Notes: generated from the letters alone by a model not told the origin. 64,000 bases of DNA from Nanobdellati archaeon (GCA_019429005.1 JAHYJR010000001.1:195232-259231); one strand, 5' to 3'; positions 2,266 through 51,645 are shown, numbered from the stretch's first letter. Numbers and translations: made by a program.

Positions 2266-4140
2266 ATGGTATCTCACGATTATAAAAAACTAAATTTCAA
2301 ATGTGGTTTGGAATTTCATCAAGCTCTTGATACTGGAAAATTATTTTGTTCTTGTTCAAGTAAACTTTCTGAAGAATTGTTTGTTACTTCAGTTGAGCGT
2401 CGTCTTAGGCCTGTTGCTGGTGAAACAGGAAATGTGGATCCTGCAGTTCTTTTTGAATCCTTTAGGGACCGATCTTTTGTTTATAATATATATGCAGGTG
2501 AATCTTGTCTTGTTGAGTTGGATTGTGAACCTCCGCACCCCGTAAACGCATTGGCTTTCGATGTTTCACTTAAGATTGCTTTGATGCTTAATCTTGATAT
2601 ACCTCATGAAATATTTTTTATGCGTAAGACTGTTAATGATGGTTCAGCAACATCTGGATTTCAAAGAACTGCTTTAATAGGTACTGGTAATATGAATTCA
2701 ATAATAAAAAGTTCATTTGGTGATGTGCATATAGAAAATATGAGTCTTGAAGAGGATGCTTCAAAAATAGAAAAACGTGAAGGTGCTAAGGTTTATTATT
2801 CTTTAAGTCGTTTGGGTATACCTCTTGTTGAAATAGGTACTGCACCTGAGATAAAAACACCTGAACATGCTTTAGATATTGCAAAAATTATAGGTACTTT
2901 TTTGAGATCTTTTAATGAAATTAAACGTGGTATTGGGACTATACGTCAAGATGTGAATATCTCAATCGCTGGTGGTGAACGGATTGAAGTTAAAGGTTGG
3001 CAAGATTTAAATAAATTACCGCGTTTGATTGAGAATGAAGTTTCAAGACAAATTTTTTTAATTGAATTTAAGAATTATTTGGTCGAGAAAAACTTCACTG
3101 AACTAAAAACGAATTCAGTGTGTGATGTGACTGATATATTCAAGACTTCAAAATCTAAATTAGTATCTCGGATGTTATCTGGTGATTCTGTTGTTCTCTC
3201 TCTTAAACTTGAAAACTTCAGTGAACAATTAAAACGTGATGTCTGTGTTGGTAAGACTTTTGGTAAGGAATTAGCTGAGTATGCTATGGCTTATGGTGTT
3301 AAGGGTATGATCCACAGTGATGAAGATCTTTCAAAATATGGTCTTGAAACTGAATTCAAAACACTTTCAAAATATCTTGACGCGAAAAAGAATGATCTTG
3401 TTTTAATTATAATTGAATCTGAATCTGTTGCAAAAAAAGCGATAAATTCTGTAATAGATCGTATTAATTATTGTCTTGTTGGTGTTCCTAAAGAGACTAG
3501 GGTACCAAATCATGTGCTTGCAACGACTAGTTATGCAAGACCCTTACCTGGTTCAGATCGTATGTATCCTGAAACTGATGTCGCATCTATTGTTATTGAT
3601 TCAATTACACTTAACAAAATTTCAAAAATGCTTCCCGAAACTCTTGATGCTAAACGGCAGCGTTTTGAGGCTAATTTAGGTATTAATGTAGAATTAGTGA
3701 ATGCGTTAATATCTTCTAAATATTTGTATCTTTTTGACATTTTATCTTCAAAATATGCACCTGTTGCAAAAGAAATTGCAAACTGTTTTGTGAATACTCT
3801 TTTTGATTTAAAATCTCGTGAAAATCTTGATATTGCTTTATTGGATGATATCTTTTTTGATGAGCTTTTTAGTCTTTTGATAAAACAAAAAATTAAAAAA
3901 GCAATAATTCCTTATATCTTGTCTGAAAAGATAAAAACACCTAATAAAACCATTTTAGATATATTAAGTGGTGTCGAAACAGTCTCTGATGTGGAAGTAC
4001 TATCTGTAATCAAAAAGTTGATTTCAGAAAACAAAGATGTATCAAAAAATGCGATAATGGGTATGGTTATGGCTAAGCTTCGTGGCAAAGTTGATGGAAA
4101 AGTTGTTTCTGATTTGGTTTTGAAACAATTTCAAAACTAA
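2266..4140 (+). CDS. gatE: Glutamyl-tRNA(Gln) amidotransferase subunit E
   Basis: 624 aa. N-terminus MVSHDYKKLNFKCGLEFHQ..L.TG.KLFC.C is the characteristic GatE start; length matches. GatB/YqeY-like C-terminal region. Confidence 0.88.
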   Translation: MVSHDYKKLNFKCGLEFHQALDTGKLFCSCSSKLSEELFVTSVERRLRPVAGETGNVDPAVLFESFRDRSFVYNIYAGESCLVELDCEPPHPVNALAFDVSLKIALMLNLDIPHEIFFMRKTVNDGSATSGFQRTALIGTGNMNSIIKSSFGDVHIENMSLEEDASKIEKREGAKVYYSLSRLGIPLVEIGTAPEIKTPEHALDIAKIIGTFLRSFNEIKRGIGTIRQDVNISIAGGERIEVKGWQDLNKLPRLIENEVSRQIFLIEFKNYLVEKNFTELKTNSVCDVTDIFKTSKSKLVSRMLSGDSVVLSLKLENFSEQLKRDVCVGKTFGKELAEYAMAYGVKGMIHSDEDLSKYGLETEFKTLSKYLDAKKNDLVLIIIESESVAKKAINSVIDRINYCLVGVPKETRVPNHVLATTSYARPLPGSDRMYPETDVASIVIDSITLNKISKMLPETLDAKRQRFEANLGINVELVNALISSKYLYLFDILSSKYAPVAKEIANCFVNTLFDLKSRENLDIALLDDIFFDELFSLLIKQKIKKAIIPYILSEKIKTPNKTILDILSGVETVSDVEVLSVIKKLISENKDVSKNAIMGMVMAKLRGKVDGKVVSDLVLKQFQN

Positions 4141-6642: not shown

Positions 6643-6775
6643 CCTGCTGTTATAACAGCAGGTTGTTATTCAATAACATTGTTATAACATTGTTATAACA
6701 CTATTTAATCAATATCTATAGTCTTATTTAATTATCTATACTGTTATAACACAGAATAACATTGTTATAACAGCT
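6643..6775. repeat. Array of GTTATAACA sites (5 exact plus 1 variant), beginning with a perfect 20-bp palindrome CCTGCTGTTATAACAGCAGG
   Basis: Seen directly in the sequence. The palindrome lies 20 bp after the stop of the repeat-protein gene; further copies fall within 130 bp. Confidence 0.6.
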
Positions 6776-8485
6776 ATAGAGACTACTGTTTTATATATCT
6801 TTCAACGTGTTTTTCATTAGTTAGGGGTTTATTAGTCACTGAAGCTTCATTGAACTTTTTTTTGAATTCACTGAAACTTCACTGCACTATAAAACTAAAA
6901 TATGTTTTTTGTGTGTGGGTGTTTTTATCGTTTTATAATCTTTTTGTTTTGCGTTTCCCTCTATTTCTATTGTTTTTTTCTGTTTTTTTGATCTGTTAGA
7001 ATCTTTGGGTTTGTGTATGTGTGTGTGTGTATGTGTTTGGATTTTGTTATTTGTGTTATTTTGGGTGGTGTCTATTAGTCTATGTTCTGTTATAATTTTC
7101 TACAAAAATAACCACTTTTTGTGAGGGTTAAACTTTTGTTTATTTATGTTGTTTGAATTTAGCTTTCTTATGGTCTTTATTGGCTCTTTTAGGTCTCCGT
7201 TTGTCTCGATTGTGGCATTTATTTTGTTTAACTCTATATTATTTAGTATTTCTTTGTCTTTTGCCCCCCCCCTTTAGTATTCTCATTTGATTTCGTTTAT
7301 TTTTCATTTAGATTTCAGGATCTTTTGTTTTCATTTTTTTTTGTCTATTTTTTTCAATTACTATCAATTTTCAGAATATTTGTTTTTATCTCTATTTTTG
7401 GCTTTTTTTTGTTATAACTCTCACATTTATATCTTATTTTATCCTAATTTGGGTTTATTTCCTGTTTTTATCTAATTTAAGCCTTTATCTGTAATCTAAA
7501 TCTATCTCTATTGTTGTATTTTCGTTGTGTTTAAGTCTTTTTAGAAAAAAATAGTTACTTTTGTTCCTTAGTTATCCTTTAGTCTGACACATCTTAACGT
7601 TTATCATGTATATCTTAGCGTTTAGTACTTTGTTTTTGTATTCCTGGTATCTGTCTCTTATTGTTCTGCGTTTCTATTATATCTCTTGAATTCTGCTCTA
7701 TATAGTACGTATTTTTTAATCGTATTATATTGCTATATTTACTGTATTTACTCTATATTGCTAGTGGTTTTTATGCTCTTTTTATTGTTTATTTTTGTAT
7801 CCTTATTTAATCTTGCTAGCACACTCTTTGGGGGTATATTTGTTTAACACAGATTTTTTATTTTACTATTTTTTTATTTTGCAGACTTTATTCACACATT
7901 TCACATTTTATTTAAATAGCTTCTGAATCTCTTTCAAATTAGACCTTAACTCTCACATTTAGTGGCTCATTTTATTTGTCTTTCTTTTTGAATTTGGGGT
8001 TTTTAAGTGTTTATTGTGCTGTTTTAACGCACTTTATACTATTTAGATTTTATTGTATTCTGCTGGTTTTTTAAAATGCTTTATATCTTTATAACACACC
8101 CGTTTTTAGGTTTTTTCCTTTCAAATGTGTATATGCCTACTGTTAAGCTCTATTTCTGTTAAATTAGATCTTGTCCTATTATATTTAGATTGTCTTATAG
8201 TTTCATAGTTTTGATATATCTTTTAAATACTACATATTATAAAACTCAATTTATACCAATAGACAAGCATATCTTTATATTGCTATATCACTAAATAAAT
8301 GGTTGTTTTATTGTCTATTGTGCTTAATAATACAGCTTATTTGGAGACAATAGCCCAAAATATGCAATCTTAGGCAAGAACTTAGTTATTTTGGCCTTTT
8401 CACGGCACAAAAATTCACAATTTTTTCATATTAGGTTTCTTTTAACTCTCTCTTTTTTTATTTTTTAAAATTCAGAACTTAGGCA

Positions 8486-8893
8486 CTAGGGTGTATCAGA
8501 TTCTGTATTATAGTTATATTTCTTTGCGCTAAACGCTTTTACTGCAAGCACTATGCTTTCAAAGAAACGTTCACATCTGTTTGATAGTTTATAATAATCA
8601 CGTTCTTTTGTTTCTATTAGACCTATGCCAATAAGTTTGTTTATCATGCTGTAATATGTTGTTTTGGATATATTGTGTTCCTTACAATATATATCCCAAT
8701 TGGACCTATCAAAAACACCATTATTACCTTTTTGTCTTAGTTCTTTTAGGAATGTATAGGCATGATCTGGCAGCATTACATTTTTTGAACCTCTATATAA
8801 CAGGCTCATAAGGCTTTCAAAATCAGGGGTTTCAAGCGGTTTTACAGATATTGTCGTGTGGTATCTTCTAGGTTTTTTTGTATCCATAATCAA
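8486..8893 (-). CDS. Small putative DNA-binding protein (winged-helix-like)
   Basis: 135 aa. The segment ISKTTYYSMINKLIGIGLIETKERDYYKLS resembles an HTH recognition helix plus wing. A TTAGGCACTA array lies upstream. Confidence 0.4.
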   Translation of the reverse strand: MIMDTKKPRRYHTTISVKPLETPDFESLMSLLYRGSKNVMLPDHAYTFLKELRQKGNNGVFDRSNWDIYCKEHNISKTTYYSMINKLIGIGLIETKERDYYKLSNRCERFFESIVLAVKAFSAKKYNYNTESDTP

Positions 8894-9223
8894 TCACATT
8901 GATTTTTTGTTTTTTCTTGTTTTTATGTATTCCTATATTATGTAGAATGGATTGGTTTTATTTTTGTCTAGAAAAAATACACCATTCTGATATGTATCTG
9001 AATACACAACACTCGTACAAAACCCCCTTGATTACTAGCCTAAACATGGCAAAAATAGCGAAGCTAGTATGTTTAGTTTAGTTATATTAGAATAATGTAG
9101 TGTTACTAAGGTATATACAAATAAAAGTATAATGATATAGTAAGATATTTTATATCTTATATATTAGACTATCTAAATACATATATATCTATATTACAAT
9201 GTATATACTGTACAATGTATAAG

Positions 9224-9391
9224 TTAGGCACCAATATTGTTTTTGTTAGGCACTAAAAAGTAGGGTTGTTAGGCACTATTTTTGTTTTTTTAGGTTATAA
9301 AATTCATTTAGATAATACGTATTTTTGTATGCTATCTGTAATTTAATGTGTATTGTTTATGTATGTTTGAATAATATGTAGTTAGGCACTA
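9224..9391. promoter_or_regulatory. Cluster of four TTAGGCACTA/TTAGGCACCA sites (9224, 9246, 9269, 9382) between two wHTH genes
   Basis: Exact 10-mer repeats spaced 22-23 bp. Further copies at 8479 and 16266. An exact 10-mer is expected about 0.1 times in this window by chance. Confidence 0.45.
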
Positions 9392-9472
9392 GACAGGTTC
9401 TTATTTAGCCCTTTTAATCAAAATTTAAGAAAAAACAGACTTTTTAGGCTAAAAATAAACAAAAAAACGATA

Positions 9473-9757
9473 TCACTTAAGCTTTTTCATCACTTTTTCA
9501 AAATCTTTAGCATATTCAGAACCTTTTTCAGTCAGTTTTATGTATTTTATACGACCTACTTTTTCAAAAGAAACAATACCTTTTTTCATGAAAAGCTCAA
9601 GTATCTTTACTGTATGTGAATATGTGCAATCTGTTATTTTTGCAAGTGTTGATGCATATACACTTTCATTCTTAATACGTAATGCTAATAGTATTTGAAC
9701 GGGTTTTGCGTGTAAAAAGAGATCACATAATTCTTCATTTTCTTTAACCATATTCAA
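9473..9757 (-). CDS. Winged-helix transcriptional regulator (ArsR/TrmB-like fold)
   Basis: 94 aa. YASTLAKITDCTYSHTVKILELFMKKGIV...GRIKYIKLTEKG is a typical HTH plus wing. Confidence 0.55.
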   Translation of the reverse strand: MNMVKENEELCDLFLHAKPVQILLALRIKNESVYASTLAKITDCTYSHTVKILELFMKKGIVSFEKVGRIKYIKLTEKGSEYAKDFEKVMKKLK

Positions 9758-9867
9758 ACCACCATTAGATAATTGTTAGTATTCTTACTATAAATATCTT
9801 TTTGATTTGATGTATATATACCTGCTGTTAAATATATATTGTTGTACAGTTGTTCGGCAATTGACTT

Positions 9868-10308
9868 TTAATCAATATAATGCGAATCCAATTCCTTTGT
9901 TTTAACATTTGGTAGTTGGAATGGTGGTGGAAGATTAATCTGTGTTGCATTTATAAGTGCTGTTACAGATGCTTTTGCAAGAATGTTATTAAGTATAGGG
10001 ATTATTATTTTTTTATCGATTTTTTTATCTGTTGTCCAGGTTTTAATAATATCTTCTGTTCCTTTTTCATATATAACACGTCCTCTTATTTTAATACCTG
10101 CAATTTCGCTATCATCTAATATATATGTTGTTATATGTTCAAAAAAGACAATAGCATTATATTCATTTATTGTGCTTTTAGAATTAGTATCTTTCTTTAT
10201 AATTGGTTTGACATCAACAATATTAGCATGACTATTAATTTTTATGTTGCCTTTGATATCTCTTTTTTTCCCACAATTTATGCTATCTATGAATGTTTTT
10301 AGGATCAT
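9868..10308 (-). CDS. Hypothetical protein
   Basis: 146 aa, no recognised motifs. Start overlaps the stop of the upstream 60-aa ORF (ATGA), which suggests translational coupling. Confidence 0.4.
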   Translation of the reverse strand: MILKTFIDSINCGKKRDIKGNIKINSHANIVDVKPIIKKDTNSKSTINEYNAIVFFEHITTYILDDSEIAGIKIRGRVIYEKGTEDIIKTWTTDKKIDKKIIIPILNNILAKASVTALINATQINLPPPFQLPNVKTKELDSHYID

Positions 10309-10487
10309 TGTGTATCTACCTTTGATTTTTTATTTTTTTCAATCTCTTGAACAACCTTTGCCATATCAAAGCTGCCACGTTTTCCAAGGTATCTAATGAC
10401 TTTCTGTTTGGATGTTTTGTTTTCCCACGTGTTCTCTACAAGATACCAATACTCATGACCTTTTATAATTTTTTTTCTAATAAACAT
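10305..10487 (-). pseudogene. 60-aa ORF resembling the N-terminal motif of IS1634/IS4-family transposases (possible remnant)
   Basis: KGHEYWYLVENTWENKTSKQKVIRYLGKRG recalls the K-G-x-x-Y-x-Y-L-V-E-S-x-R-x-x-G-K-x-x-Q-x-x-x-x-Y-L-G signature at IS1634 transposase N-termini. Recognised from memory, not searched. Confidence 0.25.
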
Positions 10488-10868: not shown

Positions 10869-11537
10869 TTATTTTTTAAGTGATTCTTTTATCATACTAA
10901 TTAATGTTTTATCTAGTTTTTGAGGTTTACCAAGTACAGAACCATATATTTTGTCAAGTTCTTTATATTTTTCATCACAAATGTCTATAATTGTGGTAAG
11001 TGTTTCAACATAAGTCTTTAACGTTCTCCCATTATGTTTGTTATTTATATTTTTTTGAAATTCTGTTGTGTTTGCGAGTATACCCATAAGCATATTTTTT
11101 GCAATGAATTTACGTGATTCTAAAAGGTATACGGTTTTATCAACGTATTCATCAATATTTTTTATAACAACATCTTTATCTTCATAATGCTCGTTTAGAG
11201 TTTCTACAACGTGTGTTTTTATGTTATTTACTGAATCATATATTTGATCTAAAGTCCATAATGTTTTATATTTGTTAGATTCTTGTTTTCCTGTCGCATT
11301 TAAACAACTATAATCAATTACACTATCACTCGCATCAAGACCTTCCTTTTGATATGCTTTTGCGACATTATTACTATATGTAGAACTTTCTTGTGGTCTA
11401 TTATCAAGATATGTTTCAACACTTTTATCAGTAATTTTTTTGATGGCTCGCTCTTTATGCCCTTCAATGTAACCAACTGACATTAATACTGCTGAAACAA
11501 CTGTCAATATAGAGATAGTTAATGTAATAATTTCCAT
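10869..11537 (-). CDS. Hypothetical membrane-anchored protein
   Basis: 222 aa. N-terminal TM helix (ITLTISILTVVSAVLMSVGYI); remainder hydrophilic, no motifs recognised. Confidence 0.45.
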   Translation of the reverse strand: MEIITLTISILTVVSAVLMSVGYIEGHKERAIKKITDKSVETYLDNRPQESSTYSNNVAKAYQKEGLDASDSVIDYSCLNATGKQESNKYKTLWTLDQIYDSVNNIKTHVVETLNEHYEDKDVVIKNIDEYVDKTVYLLESRKFIAKNMLMGILANTTEFQKNINNKHNGRTLKTYVETLTTIIDICDEKYKELDKIYGSVLGKPQKLDKTLISMIKESLKK

Positions 11538-11640: not shown

Positions 11641-11713
11641 TAGTCCCGCCAGGATTCGAACCTGGGTCTAGAGATCCAGAGTCTCTTATGCTTGGCCTCT
11701 ACATTACGGGACT
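11641..11713 (-). tRNA. tRNA-Gln (anticodon CUG)
   Basis: Cloverleaf read by hand. Acceptor AGTCCCG/CGGGACT; anticodon stem AGAGA/TCTCT with loop CTCTGGA; T-arm CCAGG-TTCGAAT-CCTGG. CCA not encoded. Confidence 0.85.
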
Positions 11714-11756: not shown

Positions 11757-12590
11757 ATGGTTATGATTCAAAAATCTGATGGCGTTGTTGAAGCTCTTGA
11801 TATTAAAAAAACAAGACATAGTTGTATTCGCGCAGGTGCAACAGAACAGATGGCTGATGAGATTATGAAGGTTGTTTTATCAAAAATAAATGATGGTGAT
11901 AGTACAAAAAAAATAAGGACTATAATATATGATGAATTACATAAGCGTGAAGATACTTTAGCGCATAGGTATGATCTTAAATATGCACTTTCTAGGCTTG
12001 ACCCTACAACAAGTCAATTTGAGAAATACATAACTAGACTTTTTTCTTATTTCGGTTATGAGACAAAGCATAGTCCCGTACCCAAACCTATGGGTCATTG
12101 CACAGATCACGAAATTGATGTATTTATGAAAAATTCTGAAGGTATAAAATTCATAGAATGTAAGCATCATTTTCATTATTATCGTGATACCGGTCTTGAT
12201 GTGCCAATGCGTGTCTGGGCTAGACTTCAAGATCTTCAAGATGGTTTTAAAAGCGGTCGTAAAAATTCATTTAATTTTAAAGGCGCATGGGTCATCACAA
12301 ACACAAAATTATCAGGGTATGCAATAAGGTATGCAACTTGTAAGAAAATAGAATATCTGGCCTGGAATCAACCTAAAGGTAATGGTTTGAATGATTACAT
12401 TGAAAAAGTGAAGGCCTATCCGTTAACCATAGTACCTTTGAATGATTATGATCGTGTGAAACTTGCTGCTGAAAACATAATAGATATTAAGGATTTTGTT
12501 GCAGCCGACCCTGATAAATTATTAAAATCGGGTATATCAAACGCGAAATCAGAGAAAGTACGTCGTTTTATATATAAATTGACAGAGTGA
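11757..12590 (+). CDS. ATP-cone domain protein fused to an Mrr-like (PD-(D/E)xK) restriction-endonuclease catalytic domain
   Basis: 277 aa. N-terminus VMIQKSDGVVEALDIKKTRHSCIRAG fits the ATP-cone consensus VIKRDG..E.F...KI. Central region FEKYITRLFSYFGYET...D-HEIDVF...ECKH fits Mrr_cat D...(D/E)xD...(E/Q)CK. Confidence 0.6.
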   Translation: MVMIQKSDGVVEALDIKKTRHSCIRAGATEQMADEIMKVVLSKINDGDSTKKIRTIIYDELHKREDTLAHRYDLKYALSRLDPTTSQFEKYITRLFSYFGYETKHSPVPKPMGHCTDHEIDVFMKNSEGIKFIECKHHFHYYRDTGLDVPMRVWARLQDLQDGFKSGRKNSFNFKGAWVITNTKLSGYAIRYATCKKIEYLAWNQPKGNGLNDYIEKVKAYPLTIVPLNDYDRVKLAAENIIDIKDFVAADPDKLLKSGISNAKSEKVRRFIYKLTE

Positions 12591-12642: not shown

Positions 12643-12966
12643 TTATTTATATTTATGCCGAGTGGAATGATTTTCCATATACTCCATTAGTTGTGATATA
12701 ACAGTTTTATTTGGCTTTTTTAAAAGTAATTCTTGTGTTTTTGCTGTTTTTCCAATGTATTTATTAATGTCTTCAATGGTTATGTTTGTATCTGCCATGG
12801 CTTCTGATATTTCTGTAAGTTTATCACGAAGATCATCTGTTCTAGTTATTTTTGTTAGGTCTAGGGAATTTAATGCTAGATAGGTTTCTGCAAACAGCTC
12901 AGGTCTCGTGTATACCGTACCTTTAGAACTTGTAACATTCTCAGGCAAGTCCTGTACAAAATCCAT
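12643..12966 (-). CDS. Hypothetical protein
   Basis: 107 aa, acidic, no motifs recognised. Confidence 0.35.
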   Translation of the reverse strand: MDFVQDLPENVTSSKGTVYTRPELFAETYLALNSLDLTKITRTDDLRDKLTEISEAMADTNITIEDINKYIGKTAKTQELLLKKPNKTVISQLMEYMENHSTRHKYK

Positions 12967-13126: not shown

Positions 13127-13600
13127 ATGGCTAAACATAAGAAAAAATCTGAAAGTTCAAATGGTAAATTTACATTGATTGTTATTGCTATATTCATATT
13201 ATCTACTGTTGGCTCAATTATGCTATCCTCACCAGCAAATACAGGGACTGAAATCGCGTATCCCGAATCTGCTGTTATCGACAGGCAGTTTACACAAGGC
13301 GAATTTACAGCAATAAGACAAAGTGGTCTTGTAGCAATCATTTTTTCATCAGATATTTGTATTGAAAACTGTGATCTTATGCTTATGGACCTTGAGCGTA
13401 CTGTACAGAAATATTCTCCATATGTGTTTATGTCAAGAACCTATAATGCATCTGCACCAATAACGCTTATAAGTTATTCTGCTATAGAAGAATTTGAGAC
13501 TTTTAATCAAACTGTTATTGATGAAGTAATATGTCAATCGCTATATATTGACCCTGCAGAAAAATCAAAATATTGTCTTCCTTTAGCATTTAAGCAATAG
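13127..13600 (+). CDS. Hypothetical membrane-anchored protein
   Basis: 157 aa. Basic N-terminus followed by a TM helix (FTLIVIAIFILSTVGSIML). Overlaps the 3' end of alaS by 18 nt on the opposite strand. Confidence 0.35.
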   Translation: MAKHKKKSESSNGKFTLIVIAIFILSTVGSIMLSSPANTGTEIAYPESAVIDRQFTQGEFTAIRQSGLVAIIFSSDICIENCDLMLMDLERTVQKYSPYVFMSRTYNASAPITLISYSAIEEFETFNQTVIDEVICQSLYIDPAEKSKYCLPLAFKQ

Positions 13601-16225
13601 GTTTTCAGTATCTTTAATTTCTTTTTTGAATCGTTTTATAGTATTTATCAGAACGTCTTTTTGAACTTTTATAAGGGTGCATATTGTAGATATCATTTCA
13701 TCATCAGATAAATCTGTTTTTTGATTTTCTGTTGATTCATATTCTCTTTTTGCTTTATCTATTTGGATTTTTATTGTCGCTCTAAGCTGTACTGCTTTAT
13801 CTTTATCAGTTGTTTCAATGTGACTGGCATAGCCAAGAATGTTCTTTACTTTATTTACAGATTTCCAGTAATTAAAAAGGTGTTTTGTTGCATCTAATGT
13901 TTCCATTTTGTCTTTAACACCAATCTCTTTTACATATTCTTCAAGCATATTACTTGTGTCTGTTATGTTATCTTCAACACTATTTCCCGCCACAAATTCA
14001 ATTCTTACGATACCATCTTGTATCTTTTTTGTGCCTAAAATCTTGATCTTTCCAATATCCTTTGTATTTGTGCAGTGTATACCGCCACAAGCTTCAGCAT
14101 CATATTTTCCGACTTCAACAATTCGAATGATTTTTCCAGGTGGTGCACCGCCTTGATATATTCTAAAACCATGTTTTTCTTCAGCATCCTGTCGTGACAT
14201 AAACTGTGTTTTAATTGGTATTGCCTCATAAATTATTTTATTTGCTGTATCTTCAATCTGTTTTAGCTCTTCAGCACTGATTTTTTTATAATGCGTAATA
14301 TCTAGACGTGATTTTTTAATACCTTTATTCGCACCACCCTGCCAGACGTGGTCACCAAGAACTAGTTTTGCACTTGCACCTAGAATATGTGTTGCTGAGT
14401 GCATCTGTGCTAAAGTCTTACGTCGCACAGCATTAATAACACCTACAACTTGTGCGTTTAAGCTAAAGCTTTTAATGTCCTCAACTTCATGCAAAACAAC
14501 ATCTTGTACTTTTTCAACATTTATGACTTTTTTATCATTTAATGTTCCGCTATCGTATGGCTGACCACCACCTGTCGGATAAAACAATGTTTTATCTAAA
14601 ACAAGCCACTTGTTATCTATTATATCTATGATTTTTCCACTAAATTCCATTTTTTCAGGTGATTCGTAATAAAGCATATCTGTTTTATCAATACCTTTGA
14701 CATCAACTGTAACTTTTTTAGTTCTAAGTGGTGCTTTCTGATGTTTTTCAGACAATTTTGAATAGAATTCTCCAGGGATTTTGATTTCAAGATGTTTAGT
14801 TCTTGCAACATTTTCAATAAGTTCTGGTGTAATTCCTTGAGATTCGTAAAGTGTCATAAGTGTATTTTTATCAAATTTATTTTTTTTGTCAATCATCGTA
14901 TTGATGATTCTTTTTGCGTTTGTCAATGTTTTTGTATACTTGCTTTTTTCACTTTCAACAATCTTTTTCATGTTTTCAATATTATCTTCAAGCTCAGGGA
15001 ACATAGGTTTTAAGTATTTAGCATGACCTTGTGCAATATCCATAAGTTCAAAATCCCATGCATTCCTGTTTATGAAATCAAGAGATCTTCGCAATAATAC
15101 CCGTAAATTATAACCACCACCAACATTAGATGGTATGCCACCATCCGTTGTTGCAAAAAGAAGTGTTCTTGCATGGTCTGCTACCGCATAAAGGTTTTGT
15201 AATGGCTCAAAATCATCTTTCATTTCTTTGACAGTCACACCAACATGTTTTGCAGCATTTGCCATTGCTTTGTTTATGTCTTGAACCTCGTCTAGGTTAA
15301 GGGATCCTGCAATTTTTGAATATTTAGCAAATTTTTCTTCATTGACTTTAATCCCTGTCGATTTTTTCATTTTGTTTGTAACGGGACCAAAAAGAGAATC
15401 ATATGATGCTGAAGTTCCATTTGAGAACCATACTAATCTTTCAAGCCCCCATCCGACATCTACAACCTTTGTATCAAGTTGTTCATAACCAGCACCATTA
15501 TTATTTTTTTGGAACTGCATAAATACCGAATTGACAAGTTCAAGGCCTCTTGAGAATGTTTCAATACAAGGTCCGAATGCAGAAAAATCAGGCATTGCCC
15601 AGATATCTTCAATGTATACAAGTTCTTTTTCAGGTATACCCATTGCCTTTGTTAAGAAATTAAAATTAAGGTCTATGCATCTGTCTTTAAAATATCCAGT
15701 TTCAGGATATCCAAAAGCATGTTGTCCTGCCATAACAAAAGAAGTTAAATGTCGTCCTGTTACACCAACATTGGGTATGTCTGGGAATCTTAAGCATACT
15801 TGCGGTACAACTAGTGGATTTGCAGGGTATTCAAAGCTCATCTTTCCATTATCAAGTCTTTGAAAATCTTGTATTGATGCAATTGTAAAATATAAGTCAG
15901 GTCTCCATCTGTCTACAACAGGATACCGTGGTATTGATGTATGTCCATTTTTTTTGAAGAATTTCTCAAAAAGTTTCCATGTTTCAATATAATCCCATTT
16001 TTGTTTTGTTATGGTGTCTCCAATAAAATCATAATCTTGACATGGTGTATCTGCACAATATTTTCTTTCAGTATCAAGTGTCCAAAATACTTTACTACAT
16101 TTTGAGCATGTTTTTCGCACAAAACCTCTCTCTTTGAATAGTTCAATCTGGTAATGTTTTTTCCAGTCTTTTGAAAATTCATTTTTAAGGTCTTTTTTGG
16201 TAAGCATAAGATAACACCAATTCAA
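13583..16225 (-). CDS. alaS: Alanine--tRNA ligase (archaeal type)
   Basis: 880 aa. Archaeal AlaRS N-terminus with CSKCSK zinc motif, HSATH editing-domain motif, C-terminal DHHA1-like region. Confidence 0.93.
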   Translation of the reverse strand: MNWCYLMLTKKDLKNEFSKDWKKHYQIELFKERGFVRKTCSKCSKVFWTLDTERKYCADTPCQDYDFIGDTITKQKWDYIETWKLFEKFFKKNGHTSIPRYPVVDRWRPDLYFTIASIQDFQRLDNGKMSFEYPANPLVVPQVCLRFPDIPNVGVTGRHLTSFVMAGQHAFGYPETGYFKDRCIDLNFNFLTKAMGIPEKELVYIEDIWAMPDFSAFGPCIETFSRGLELVNSVFMQFQKNNNGAGYEQLDTKVVDVGWGLERLVWFSNGTSASYDSLFGPVTNKMKKSTGIKVNEEKFAKYSKIAGSLNLDEVQDINKAMANAAKHVGVTVKEMKDDFEPLQNLYAVADHARTLLFATTDGGIPSNVGGGYNLRVLLRRSLDFINRNAWDFELMDIAQGHAKYLKPMFPELEDNIENMKKIVESEKSKYTKTLTNAKRIINTMIDKKNKFDKNTLMTLYESQGITPELIENVARTKHLEIKIPGEFYSKLSEKHQKAPLRTKKVTVDVKGIDKTDMLYYESPEKMEFSGKIIDIIDNKWLVLDKTLFYPTGGGQPYDSGTLNDKKVINVEKVQDVVLHEVEDIKSFSLNAQVVGVINAVRRKTLAQMHSATHILGASAKLVLGDHVWQGGANKGIKKSRLDITHYKKISAEELKQIEDTANKIIYEAIPIKTQFMSRQDAEEKHGFRIYQGGAPPGKIIRIVEVGKYDAEACGGIHCTNTKDIGKIKILGTKKIQDGIVRIEFVAGNSVEDNITDTSNMLEEYVKEIGVKDKMETLDATKHLFNYWKSVNKVKNILGYASHIETTDKDKAVQLRATIKIQIDKAKREYESTENQKTDLSDDEMISTICTLIKVQKDVLINTIKRFKKEIKDTENLLLKC

Positions 16226-38079: not shown

Positions 38080-39528
38080 TTATTTTTTTCTCCATTTGAC
38101 GCCTGAATCTGAATCTTCAAGAATAATCCCGACCGCAGTTAATTGATTTCGTATTTTATCAGCCTTTTCAAAATCTTTTTCAGCTCTTGCAAGTTCTCGT
38201 GCATCAACAAGTATTTTTATGTTATCTTCAAGAATATCCTCTGCCTGTAATGTAATTATGCCAAAGATTGTATCTATTTTTTTGAAAAGTTCAAACACTA
38301 GGTGTGCATCCTTTTCACTTATGCTCTTTGTATGCATGGCTTTTTTTACATATGTGACAAAATTAAAAAGTTCAGCAAAAGCTTTAGCTGTATCAAGATC
38401 ATCATCCATCGCATCTTCAAACGTGTTTTTAAATATCTCAAGAGTATCTTTTAATTCTGTATTGTCTTTGATATCTGTTTTATAGTCTTTTAGATTTATC
38501 ATAAAATTATTCAGATTCTCAACCGTATTTTTAGCTTGTTCTAGCGATTTATCTGTAAGGTTAAGTGCGGTTCTATATGGTACTGATATCAGCATGTATC
38601 TTAATGTTAATGGACTGTATCCTTTTTTCTCTATATCTTTTAATGTATAGAAATTTCCAAGTGATTTGCTCATCTTTGTTCCATTTACAAGAAGATGTCT
38701 TAAATGCATCCAATAATTTACAAAACGTTTACCTGTAGCACCTTCAGTTTGTGCTATCTCACATTCATGGTGTGGGAATATATTGTCTTCAGCACCTGTG
38801 TGTATATCTATAGTATCACCTAAATATTTAGTCGCCATAACGGAACATTCTATATGCCATCCTGGGTATCCAACACTCCACGGACTTTCCCATGTCATAA
38901 TATGTTTAGGGCTATTTATCCAAAGTGCAAAATCAAATTGGTTCTTTTTATCTTTATTGAATTCAACCCGTCCGCCAGACCCTGCTTTAAGTTTATCTAT
39001 GGTATTTCCAGAAAGTTTTCCATAATCTTTGAATTTTGAAACATCATAATATACGGATCCATTAGCGTTATAGGCATAACCTTTATCAATTAGTATCTTT
39101 ATCATTTCAATGATTTCTTTAATGTGTTCACTTGGTTTTGGTCTTACATCCGGTTCTTTTAAACCAATCTTTTTTGAATCTGCTAAAAATTCTTTTGTAT
39201 AATAATCTGCAATATCCCAAACTGTTTTGTTTTCTCTTTTTGCTGCTTTTTCCATTTTATCTTCTCCAAGGTCCGAACTTATGACTTCATCTTCTGTCAT
39301 ATGCCCGACATCAGTAAAATTCATGACTTGTTTGACTGTATAGCCTCTGTATTCAAGATATCGTCTTATAAGGTCTGCAAAAGTGTATGCTCTTAAATTA
39401 CCTACATGCGCATAATCATATACTGTAAGACCACAATTATACATTGTCGCAATACCTTCTTTTTGCGTTTTAAAGTCTTCTTTTTTTCTAGTCATGGTGT
39501 TATAGAACTTAATTGCCATACATATCAA
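38080..39528 (-). CDS. cysS: Cysteine--tRNA ligase
   Basis: 482 aa. HIGH motif (YDYAHVGN), KMSKSLGN, Zn-binding Cys/His. Confidence 0.93.
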   Translation of the reverse strand: MICMAIKFYNTMTRKKEDFKTQKEGIATMYNCGLTVYDYAHVGNLRAYTFADLIRRYLEYRGYTVKQVMNFTDVGHMTEDEVISSDLGEDKMEKAAKRENKTVWDIADYYTKEFLADSKKIGLKEPDVRPKPSEHIKEIIEMIKILIDKGYAYNANGSVYYDVSKFKDYGKLSGNTIDKLKAGSGGRVEFNKDKKNQFDFALWINSPKHIMTWESPWSVGYPGWHIECSVMATKYLGDTIDIHTGAEDNIFPHHECEIAQTEGATGKRFVNYWMHLRHLLVNGTKMSKSLGNFYTLKDIEKKGYSPLTLRYMLISVPYRTALNLTDKSLEQAKNTVENLNNFMINLKDYKTDIKDNTELKDTLEIFKNTFEDAMDDDLDTAKAFAELFNFVTYVKKAMHTKSISEKDAHLVFELFKKIDTIFGIITLQAEDILEDNIKILVDARELARAEKDFEKADKIRNQLTAVGIILEDSDSGVKWRKK

Positions 39529-39551: not shown

Positions 39552-39625
39552 AGCGGAAGGAGAGATTCGAACTCCCGGAAAACCGATCTGCAGTCGGTCA
39601 CATTAGACCACTCTGTCACTTCCGC
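39552..39625 (-). tRNA. tRNA-Cys (anticodon GCA)
   Basis: Hand-folded. Acceptor GCGGAAG/CTTCCGC; anticodon stem ACCGA/TCGGT with loop CTGCAGA; T-loop TTCGAAT. Lies 23 bp downstream of cysS. D-arm pairing imperfect. Confidence 0.78.
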
Positions 39626-48932: not shown

Positions 48933-49123
48933 TGTGTGATGAAAAAAGCAATAAAACTTGGAAATGAGTTTGTTGATGCTTATCTTTATGCTAAGGTTAA
49001 GGTGTGATTATATCTAATTTTTGAAGATGTTTTTATTCCGTTTCTCTGTTTTTGTTATACTTGATTGTTTCATACACCTATTTTTTTAAAATCTTAAGTG
49101 ACTATTTTACGAAAAATATATAT

Positions 49124-49462
<339 letters not shown>

Positions 49463-49501
49463 ATCGTTATAAAAAAATGTAAAATATCTTTAGTTGATTG
49501 T

Positions 49502-50350
49502 ATGAAACAAAACATTAATAATCATCTCAGTATAATGACAATTTTATTAAGAAAATGTAATTTATATTGTGATCATTGTTCTTCTAATTCTTCGTTTAAA
49601 CGTGAAGGTTTTGTTAATACTGATGATATTTTAAACATATTGGAAGCTTTTGCGCCATATGCCAAGAAAAAACAGCATCTTGTTAGTGGAGGGGAACCAA
49701 CATTACATCCAGATTTACATTATGTATTATCTGCTTCAAACGATTTGGGTTATAAGACATCAGTTGTGACTAATGCGTCTTGGATTGATCTTGATGATAT
49801 GGGTAAGACTGAAAGATTTTTTTATGACACTTTTCCTGAAGATTTAAAGATAACATCATCTTTTGATCTGGAGCATTTCAAGGAAGATCCAATGCTTCTC
49901 CAAAGATTATCTGTTTTACATGATTTAACACATAATCGCAATAAAATTACTATTGATGGTGCATATAATGGCGTTAACGGTATAAAGAAAATACAGTCTT
50001 ATTTAGACGAAACTACATTTGATTATATGTTGATTCCTATGCAGAGTATGGGGCGGGCAACAAATTTAGTAAATCAGAATATTTTAGATAATAATAAATT
50101 ATCTTGTCCTAAAGGTGATAAGAAAGGGTTTGTTATCACTGATGATGGTGTATATTATTGCTTAAGGACTGCTCTTACTTCAAATCCTTGTTTTAAACTT
50201 TCAGATAGTTATGATGTGGAAGAAATATTACATGCTTTGGATTGTTTCAATTCATCTTCAATAAACAGTTCAATCGTATCATTATATGATAATTTATCGC
50301 CTCAAGAGATTATTGATAATTATCATTATCCTTGTGATTTATGCGAATAG
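49502..50350 (+). CDS. Radical SAM protein with C-terminal Cys-rich region (possible SPASM/twitch auxiliary cluster)
   Basis: 282 aa from MKQNINNH.... CNLYCDHC equals CxxxCxxC at residues 19-26; GGEP motif; C-terminal cysteines C..(CPKGD)...YYC......C and terminal CDLC. Confidence 0.72.
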   Translation: MKQNINNHLSIMTILLRKCNLYCDHCSSNSSFKREGFVNTDDILNILEAFAPYAKKKQHLVSGGEPTLHPDLHYVLSASNDLGYKTSVVTNASWIDLDDMGKTERFFYDTFPEDLKITSSFDLEHFKEDPMLLQRLSVLHDLTHNRNKITIDGAYNGVNGIKKIQSYLDETTFDYMLIPMQSMGRATNLVNQNILDNNKLSCPKGDKKGFVITDDGVYYCLRTALTSNPCFKLSDSYDVEEILHALDCFNSSSINSSIVSLYDNLSPQEIIDNYHYPCDLCE

Positions 50351-51455: not shown

Positions 51456-51486
51456 TTAAACCACTTGCGTTTTATATTTTTAGATA

Positions 51487-51560
51487 TGGGGCCAGCGTGA
51501 TTTGAACACGCGACACCTAGATCTTCAGTCTAGTGCTCTCCCAGGCTGAGCTATGACCCC
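51487..51560 (-). tRNA. tRNA-Phe (anticodon GAA)
   Basis: Hand-folded. Acceptor GGGGTCA/TGGCCCC; D-arm GCTC-AGCCTGGGA-GAGC; anticodon stem CTAGA/TCTAG with loop CTGAAGA; T-arm GCGTG-TTCAAAT-CACGC. CCA not encoded. Confidence 0.88.
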
Positions 51561-51569
51561 ATATGAATA

Positions 51570-51645
51570 TGGCGCCCCGGGCAGGACTCGAACCTACGAC
51601 CTCGTGATTAACAGTCACGCGCTCTACCTACTAAGCTACCGAGGC
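51570..51645 (-). tRNA. tRNA-Asn (anticodon GUU), CCA encoded
   Basis: Acceptor GCCTCGG/CCGGGGC with discriminator G plus CCA; D-arm GCTT-AGTAGGTA-GAGC; anticodon stem CGTGA/TCACG with loop CTGTTAA; T-loop TTCGAGT. Confidence 0.88.

Follow-up and report, generated by a model that had tools for sequence, protein, structure and literature searches.

The locus and its genomic setting

The gene under study lies on the plus strand at positions 11757-12590 of the window (the whole 64-kb stretch of DNA that was analysed), begins with an ATG and encodes a 277-aa protein comprised of an ATP-cone, a PD-(D/E)xK nuclease and an AF1548-like C-terminal domain; the coordinates match those of the original prediction. 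An identical protein is on record as K0B02_01020, a 'hypothetical protein' from a 287-kb contig of a DPANN-group archaeon MAG. The window, with a G+C content of approximately 30%, is ordinary core chromosome and carries the genes for GatD, GatE, AlaRS, LeuRS, CysRS, both PheRS subunits (alpha and beta), TopoVI-B and MCM.

As the original prediction had noted, the gene adjoins a tRNA-Gln gene. This tRNA-Gln(CTG) gene (11641-11713, minus strand) is divergent from it and lies 43 nt upstream on the opposite strand. At least 12 related DPANN loci, among them that of a 76%-identical relative, likewise have a tRNA-Gln gene here, which therefore reflects conserved synteny and not an integration scar; it was rejected as an integration site or island edge on the same ground. 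Two small genes follow the nuclease, also as predicted. The nearer is a 107-aa ORF on the minus strand (12643-12966), and the second, on the plus strand (13127-13600), encodes a protein of 157 aa with a membrane anchor at its N-terminus. In the window, this second gene is 536 nt from the nuclease gene. Among related DPANN loci, 18 have its homologue on the strand of the nuclease, 12-84 nt downstream, which makes the membrane protein a likely operon partner. The 157-aa protein showed no Pfam match, only three homologues by word-index search and an AF2 model with a pLDDT of 42.8. The 107-aa ORF breaks the usual pairing of nuclease and membrane protein. As no homologue was found in any of 97 loci, the 76%-identical relative included, it is either a lineage-specific ORFan or not a gene.

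The alanyl-tRNA synthetase gene (13583-16225, minus strand) is convergent and serves as a conserved synteny anchor. The neighbours in the window and in its closest relatives are the tRNA-Gln, the small membrane protein and AlaRS, and the order tRNA-Gln, nuclease, small membrane protein, AlaRS is kept in divergent DPANN genomes at 35-76% identity. Upstream, the genes at 8486-8893, 9473-9757 and 9868-10308 are syntenic in related DPANN loci; the only ORFs without homologues in related loci were the 107-aa ORF and a 222-aa ORF (10869-11537). The suggestion that the nuclease gene sits at the edge of an accessory interval was thus not borne out, given the synteny of the genes across 8486-10487 in related DPANN genomes and the conserved gene order on the other side.

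Domain architecture of the protein

The N-terminal domain (aa 1-80; 11757-11996, plus strand) has the fold of an ATP-cone, with a beta-hairpin lid and a four-helix bundle. The Pfam ATP-cone model (PF03477) matched aa 3-68 above its curated threshold (26.4 bits, cut-off 25.8, E 1.1e-5), and a profile of the family matched NrdR at E 0.0015. The residues that contact nucleotide in E. coli NrdR (K53, S54, E59, F61, K65, S105 and I108; bioRxiv 10.1101/2025.03.28.645925) align with K6, S7, E12, L14, K18, T50 and I53 of the window protein. K6, K18 and T50 vary little or not at all within the family, and their conservation at NrdR contact positions indicates selection for ligand binding; G9 is also conserved. 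Position 14, aligned with NrdR F61, is leucine in the window protein and phenylalanine in 39 of the 42 homologues compared, and both this position and I53 are hydrophobic, matching F61 and I108 of NrdR. The arginine of the canonical KRDG motif of ATP-cones is replaced by serine or alanine in the family, with serine in the window protein and also in E. coli NrdR. ATP-cones have been described as switches that can be transferred between proteins and that respond to dATP/ATP by way of oligomerisation (PMC5794259).

The central domain (aa ~85-205; 12009-12371, plus strand) contains the restriction-endonuclease-like alpha-beta-beta-beta-alpha-beta core with a catalytic E...D...E-x-K arrangement. 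The catalytic residues are E89 (codon at 12021-12023), D121 (12117-12119), E134 (12156-12158) and K136 (12162-12164), all on the plus strand, and each is invariant in 42 of 42 diverse homologues, among which D159, H118, H138 and a T-N-T motif are nearly invariant. They align with D38, E51 and K53 of AF1548, the triad predicted for that protein (PMC1821046). The Pfam Mrr_cat model matched aa 86-199 below threshold (15.7 bits against a cut-off of 21, E 0.017), and AF1548 (PDB 1Y88) matched aa 91-268 at E 1.4e-18, or 2e-59 when the family profile was used. Judged from its sequence, the protein is an active-looking PD-(D/E)xK nuclease with an intact catalytic site. The call of an ATP-cone fused to a restriction-endonuclease-like catalytic domain in the original prediction was accordingly upheld by Pfam, by the AF1548 match and by the family profile.

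A third domain, absent from the earlier description, is present at the C-terminus (aa ~210-277; 12384-12587, plus strand); it is all-helical and AF1548-like. The 1Y88 alignment extends through aa 268, and to profile position 277 with the family profile. The Pfam model AF1548-like_C (PF22357) matched aa 221-268 of the window protein weakly (E 0.15), and its match is precomputed for many relatives. A weak similarity to the N-terminal helix-hairpin-helix domain of Rad51 (E 0.39) was identified, and the C-terminal domain is possibly a helix-hairpin-helix-type DNA-binding module.

Relation to characterised proteins

AF1548 of Archaeoglobus fulgidus (Mrr_cat plus AF1548-like_C), a protein of solved structure, shares the nuclease core and the C-terminal helical domain; however, it has no ATP-cone, and the match begins at residue 22 of its 199. 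As a structural-genomics protein, AF1548 supplies a fold but no mechanism. The sensor domain is the one found in NrdR and in the ribonucleotide reductases (NrdA, NrdB, NrdD and NrdJ), although the cone of the window protein is shorter in two loops. The output differs: NrdR acts through a Zn-ribbon DNA binder and RNR through a reductase, whereas here the output is a nuclease. NrdR moreover carries its Zn-ribbon N-terminal to the cone, while the window protein starts directly with the cone.

The catalytic fold is held in common with Mrr-type (type IV) restriction endonucleases, and many relatives of the window protein are automatically named 'restriction endonuclease'. The Mrr-type enzymes, however, have an N-terminal winged-helix reader of modified DNA where the window protein has an ATP-cone; the Mrr_cat score is below cut-off, and the genomic context is housekeeping or metabolic and not that of restriction-modification. 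Can2, Card1 and Cdn1 (CARF), Cap4 (SAVED) and NucC are likewise ligand-gated PD-(D/E)xK nucleases, and by analogy the window protein may be gated too. CARF and SAVED domains read a dedicated second messenger, whereas the ATP-cone here would read housekeeping ATP/dATP, and the window protein, unlike these effectors, has no signal-generating partner, no defence-island context and no PADLOC match. The protein is thus not an Mrr-type restriction enzyme, not NrdR and not a PADLOC system. A nucleotide-gated nuclease, as originally suggested, remains the best mechanistic reading by analogy.

Size and spread of the family

Among 1.84 billion representatives searched with a profile there were 1,948 matches, with 555 representatives at 50% identity at E<=1e-30; the best 150 matches were nearly all ~265-295 aa and aligned end to end. 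A second search returned 2,418 clusters at 90% identity, most of which carry a precomputed ATP-cone plus Mrr_cat, with or without AF1548-like_C, under automatic names including 'restriction endonuclease', 'ATP cone domain-containing protein', 'ATPase', 'Holliday junction resolvase-like' and 'hypothetical'. At least 583 loci of the family were present in GTDB species genomes. The archaeal carriers include Aenigmat-, Nanohalo-, Undin- and Altiarchaeota, Bathyarchaeia and Nitrososphaera, and the bacterial carriers include Patescibacteria, Bacteroidota (with the cultured Altibacter and Leptobacterium), Actinomycetota, Gammaproteobacteria and Nitrospira. Databases have thus catalogued this architecture before. 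Our search of the literature on the ATP-cone together with nuclease, endonuclease, restriction endonuclease or Mrr, and on AF1548, found no functional study of it. The gene in the window is an ordinary member of this catalogued family, and the linkage to metabolism described below is the new part.

Association with nucleotide-metabolism genes

Several gene orders place members of the family in operons with AMP phosphorylase (AMPpase) pathway genes. In Nitrososphaera, the order is e2b2 (R15P-isomerase-like, IF-2B), rbcL (RuBisCO large subunit), AMP phosphorylase-like gene and nuclease, with a 63-nt gap before the last. An Aenigmatarchaeota locus (L043) has e2b2 (IF-2B), AMPpase and nuclease, and in L028 a phosphoglycerate mutase (PGM) gene stands between AMPpase and nuclease, with IF-2B (e2b2) at the head; the same AMPpase, PGM, nuclease order, with e2b2 in front in some cases, recurs in L100, L101, L103 and L144. 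A metagenome scan seeded with the L028-type clade, an AMPpase-linked member, recovered this order in all close relatives for which upstream flank was available. In L034, an iPGM gene precedes the nuclease, and the pair is divergent from e2b2-rbcL-AMPpase. Among the bacteria, a Pontibacter plasmid carries a tight operon of nuclease, beta-CASP metallo-hydrolase, a thymidine-phosphorylase-family protein (497 aa, of the AMP-phosphorylase type) and a PRPP-synthase-like protein, and two Bacteroidota loci (L090 and L095) read ArsR, nuclease, P-type ATPase, AMPpase-like and PRPP-synthase-like, with or without a beta-CASP gene before the AMPpase-like gene.

Genes of deoxynucleotide metabolism are also found beside the nuclease. 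It lies directly upstream of RNR with a gap of 14-17 nt in L036 and L127 and precedes NrdR and RNR in L136, L145, L151 and L154; a divergent dCMP deaminase gene is situated 200-300 nt upstream in L108, L114 and L115. ScpB is directly upstream in L055, L116-L118 and L142, and SMC and ScpA lie further out. None of the RNR, NrdR-RNR, dCMP deaminase and ScpB links had been selected for by the way in which the metagenome scan was seeded.

Neighbours were counted within 5 kb of the nuclease in 135 deduplicated loci with usable flank. The most frequent were AlaRS (16 loci, all but one archaeal), AMPpase-like proteins (13), P-type ATPases (12), MnmA (11) and ScpB (10), followed by RNR and PP-loop thiolase-like proteins (8 each), R15P isomerase and PGM (7 each), beta-CASP proteins and dCMP deaminase (6 each) and NrdR (4). 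At least one gene of a strict nucleotide-metabolism set (AMP phosphorylase, R15P isomerase, RuBisCO, PRPP-synthase-like, RNR, NrdR and dCMP deaminase) was present in 26 of the 135 loci, often directly adjacent and on the same strand, a count that is inflated for AMPpase and for nucleotide metabolism because the scan started from an AMPpase-linked member. The nuclease was found together with deoA, e2b2 or rbcL in 13 of the 135, in several gene orders and clades, none of them the window or its closest relatives. The linked nucleases belong to at least two separated clades with differing gene orders, one archaeal (42-46% identity within the clade) and one made up of Nitrososphaera and bacterial members (47-60% identity). 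The original prediction had counted consistent placement of homologues in nucleotide-metabolism operons as evidence against its own reading; such placement proved recurrent, though not consistent.

The 64-kb window itself has no AMPpase, RNR or RuBisCO homologue, nor any other linked pathway gene, and the proposed role in this genome would accordingly follow from homology. A 625-kb MAG (QJJ-9_bin.46, locus L027) has both the AMPpase pathway and the nuclease, which there adjoins AlaRS.

Proposed role

Our preferred reading is that of an ATP/dATP-gated nuclease that supplies (deoxy)nucleotides; it is the leading possibility, which we hold tentatively and short of calling it probable. The proposal of nucleotide release comes from the partners, which make dNTPs (RNR and NrdR) or convert dNMPs (dCMP deaminase), degrade nucleic acid (beta-CASP), or break NMPs down to 3-phosphoglycerate and beyond (AMPpase, R15P isomerase, RuBisCO III and PGM).

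The nuclease would be a cytoplasmic, single-copy and vertically inherited enzyme, in which an AF1548-type endonuclease with a possibly DNA-binding tail is placed under the control of the N-terminal ATP-cone. The cone would act as an adenine-nucleotide sensor, as in RNR and NrdR, and would switch states through ATP/dATP-dependent oligomerisation. The substrate, we infer, would be nucleic acid, probably DNA and possibly RNA, from which (deoxy)nucleotides would be released. [quoted passage not shown] Whether ATP or dATP (or ADP/AMP) is bound would set the nuclease on or off, and the cell's own nucleic acids would thereby be spared from over-degradation. An adenine-nucleotide gate against over-degradation has a precedent in the AMP pathway, according to a statement in PMC9563170 that cites Aono 2012.

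Family members are the fourth gene of AMP pathway operons, or adjacent to them, in several archaeal clades, and sit with AMPpase-like genes in Bacteroidota. The literature on the pathway does not list the nuclease as a component, and papers on the CPR/DPANN RuBisCO context do not mention a nuclease. Several observations count against nucleotide supply: only about one fifth of the loci have a nucleotide-metabolism neighbour, the window and its closest relatives have other neighbours, and the AMPpase route takes ribonucleotides while the helix-hairpin-helix-like tail, itself a weak match, suggests DNA. The replaced KRDG arginine of the cone also counts against it, although E. coli NrdR shares that serine.

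DPANN archaea and CPR bacteria lack nucleotide biosynthesis and, it has been proposed, subsist in part on nucleic acids that they scavenge and process via AMPpase and RuBisCO III. Undinarchaeota have been proposed to take up DNA, break it down with nucleases that are not specified and use the AMPpase pathway (PMC7414124), and the same has been proposed for the nanohaloarchaeal Nucleotidisoterales (PMC9563170); QJJ-9_bin.46 is one of the MAGs concerned. The nucleases that feed this route, and the means by which self-destruction is avoided, are unspecified in the literature consulted. A small (~280 aa), widespread family that is retained in a 625-kb genome and is repeatedly operonic with the AMPpase pathway, RNR/NrdR and dCMP deaminase is a concrete and testable candidate. 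In a more far-reaching version, which we consider rather doubtful, the family as a whole would be an unrecognised class of allosterically gated housekeeping nucleases whose ATP-cone reads ATP/dATP, as a measure of energy or dNTP status, and licenses the degradation of imported or surplus nucleic acid, as a regulated entry step to (d)NMP salvage and the AMPpase/RuBisCO III route. If this were true, the nuclease would be the salvage-side counterpart of RNR, with the same sensor in control. To our knowledge, ATP-cones are known experimentally only as switches of RNRs and NrdR, and an ATP-cone-controlled nuclease would carry that allosteric logic over to nucleic-acid degradation.

Alternative explanations

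The original prediction had considered a part in immunity or abortive infection plausible. On this reading, the ATP-cone would sense an infection-induced change in ATP/dATP and unleash a non-specific nuclease. The fusion of a sensor to a nuclease is a common immune design, the core is similar to restriction enzymes of types IV and IIS as well as to the ligand-gated Can2, Card1, Cdn1, NucC and Cap4, one member is carried on the mobilisable Pontibacter plasmid beside an IS5 element, and a HEPN/nucleotidyltransferase pair lies upstream in L004. The nuclease protein nevertheless matched no family of PADLOC-DB 2.0 at E<=0.01, and its neighbours in the window showed only weak winged-helix similarities. 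ORFs were called in 84 homologue loci and the neighbours clustered; the 272 genes within two positions of 80 homologues included no recurrent defence family, and the defence-island association that was looked for in the neighbourhoods of homologues was not seen. The matches among these neighbours were sparse and generic (MnmA matching QueC, a Cas4-like nuclease, and single helicases, one of them UvrD, or AAA proteins). Neither IMG/VR nor a set of 50,697 phage records contained a homologue, and among 72,556 plasmids there were only two. Against defence also stand the core-genome synteny kept across DPANN genomes and the members themselves, which are full-length, without domain shuffling, and retained in genomes down to 625 kb. 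Defence was thus set aside as the leading explanation and is improbable. A sensor and nuclease beside a tRNA gene is not a defence island here, and a tempting misreading is corrected. A role in DNA repair or chromosome maintenance is less improbable, although still unlikely: a structure-specific or damage-processing nuclease would respond to ATP/dATP and thereby keep DNA processing in step with replication and dNTP levels. The succession of nuclease core and possible helix-hairpin-helix tail is that of XPF/Mus81/Hef, and ScpB/SMC, Cas4-like, Ogt and UDG genes are among the neighbours; however, such neighbours, linked to repair and segregation, occur in particular lineages only, there is no recurrent partner of the PCNA, helicase or recombinase type, and the operons with AMP phosphorylase, PGM, RuBisCO and PRPP-synthase-like genes would be left unexplained.

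Two further readings are weaker still. A tRNA- or RNA-directed nuclease tied to wobble thiolation of tRNA-Gln/Glu/Lys, for instance in tRNA turnover or quality control, would account for the divergently adjacent tRNA-Gln gene of the DPANN loci and for MnmA, the s2U34 synthase for these tRNAs, which immediately precedes the nuclease, on its strand, in 11 bacterial loci of CPR type (Saccharibacteria, Paceibacterota and related, and one binned as Nitrospira). In 8-9 archaeal loci a PP-loop protein like TtcA/TtuA/Ncs6 is encoded downstream in convergent orientation, AlaRS, CysRS and NFACT are found among the neighbours, and the related Can2 and Card1 cut RNA as well as DNA. Yet translation genes crowd the reduced genomes of DPANN archaea and CPR bacteria, so that adjacency carries little weight; in most cases the anticodon of the adjacent tRNA-Gln is CUG and thus no substrate for s2U34 formation, the PP-loop genes, in convergent orientation, do not share a transcript with the nuclease, and the C-terminal domain may resemble, if weakly, DNA-binding HhH modules. 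We regard this reading as distinctly improbable. The least probable, to the point that it was discarded, is a non-catalytic, NrdR-like nucleotide-sensing DNA-binding regulator that reuses the nuclease fold. It would combine an ATP-cone with a putative DNA-binding module, as NrdR does, and some members are directly upstream of RNR or NrdR, but the invariance of the four catalytic residues and the near-invariance of D159, H118, H138 and the T-N-T motif form the pattern of an active enzyme.

Other recurrent neighbours

Outside the nucleotide-supply model, P-type ATPases, MnmA, PP-loop thiolase-like proteins and ScpB are recurrent neighbours of the nuclease. The P-type ATPases, of both the Ca/Mg type and the heavy-metal type, are strong neighbours in bacteria, where they often overlap the nuclease stop codon, and other strong bacterial neighbours are superoxide dismutase (SOD), MgtC, DUF5676 and an ArsR-family regulator. 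Conceivably, the nuclease has a part in the homeostasis of Mg2+, adenylates or nucleic acids.

Possible links of the nuclease family to tRNA wobble thiolation

The ATP-cone nuclease family, represented in the window by the gene at 11757-12590 (forward strand), has three separate ties to the thiolation of the wobble uridine of tRNA-Gln, tRNA-Glu and tRNA-Lys. The gene for MnmA lies immediately 5' of the nuclease in 11 bacterial loci of the Patescibacteria (CPR) type (within the range L054-L082), and a PP-loop gene resembling TtcA/TtuA/Ncs6 is found downstream, in convergent orientation, in 8-9 archaeal loci (within the range L099-L144). The third tie is the tRNA-Gln gene itself, which adjoins the nuclease in DPANN archaea and is present in the window at 11641-11713. 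This recurrence could be a coincidence in genomes that are dense in translation genes.

Association with P-type ATPases in bacterial members

The bacterial members were repeatedly accompanied by co-directional P-type ATPase genes, the start of which was often overlapped. A P-type ATPase gene adjoined the nuclease in L050, L074, L076, L090, L095 and L096, and was present within 5 kb in 12 loci and within 10 kb in 15 loci. The ATPases were of two kinds, the Cation_ATPase_N/C type and the heavy-metal HMBD type. Genes for ArsR, Cu-oxidase, SOD, MgtC, YHS and DUF5676 proteins were sometimes close to the pair. The neighbourhood may represent a metal or Mg2+/adenylate homeostasis module.

Other neighbours of the homologues

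In several Patescibacteria (L072, L078, L082 and related CPR loci), a second PD-(D/E)xK nuclease, Cas4/RecB-like and with a C-terminal cysteine cluster, was located immediately 3' of the ATP-cone nuclease; no CRISPR context was visible around it in these loci. One DPANN relative (L004) carried a HEPN/nucleotidyltransferase (minimal NTase) pair directly 5' of its nuclease gene (6739-7630), the sole toxin-antitoxin-like neighbour observed among the nuclease loci. Two metagenomic loci, in which the ORF calling was crude, carried unusually long products upstream of the nuclease, resembling R15P isomerase in L101 (493 aa) and AMP phosphorylase in L144 (942 aa). These may be fusions of pathway-enzyme genes or ORF-calling artefacts.

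Genes surrounding the nuclease in the window

A conserved partner of the nuclease, found only in DPANN, is encoded at 13127-13600 (forward strand), with its 3' end overlapping the AlaRS ORF as listed by 18 nt. The protein has an N-terminal membrane anchor, is 151-196 aa long across DPANN, and contains conserved cysteines in the arrangement C-x3-C ... C ... C. It had no Pfam match, and its predicted structure was of low confidence (pLDDT 42.8).

The tRNA-Gln/nuclease pair is flanked by two reverse-strand ORFs, of 222 aa (10869-11537) and 107 aa (12643-12966), neither of which had detectable homologues among 97 related loci. At the site of the 107-aa ORF, the relatives have a gap of 12-84 nt or, in the closest relative, a different ORF of 62 aa. 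A 219-aa ORF occupies the place of the 222-aa ORF in L097, agreeing in position but not in sequence.

GatD (275-1612) and GatE (2266-4140), which form the archaeal Glu-tRNA(Gln) amidotransferase, are encoded with the tRNA-Gln gene ~7.5 kb downstream. The intervening genes for small winged-helix proteins are syntenic in related DPANN genomes.

Elsewhere in the window, the kilobase with the lowest G+C content (49001-50000; 0.188 versus ~0.30 elsewhere) overlaps an ORF of 432 aa (49052-50350). The genes for tRNA-Phe and tRNA-Asn are in tandem on the reverse strand (51486-51645), separated by 8 nt. The tRNA-Cys gene (39552-39625) shares the reverse strand with the CysRS ORF (38080-39528), and 24 nt separate the two.
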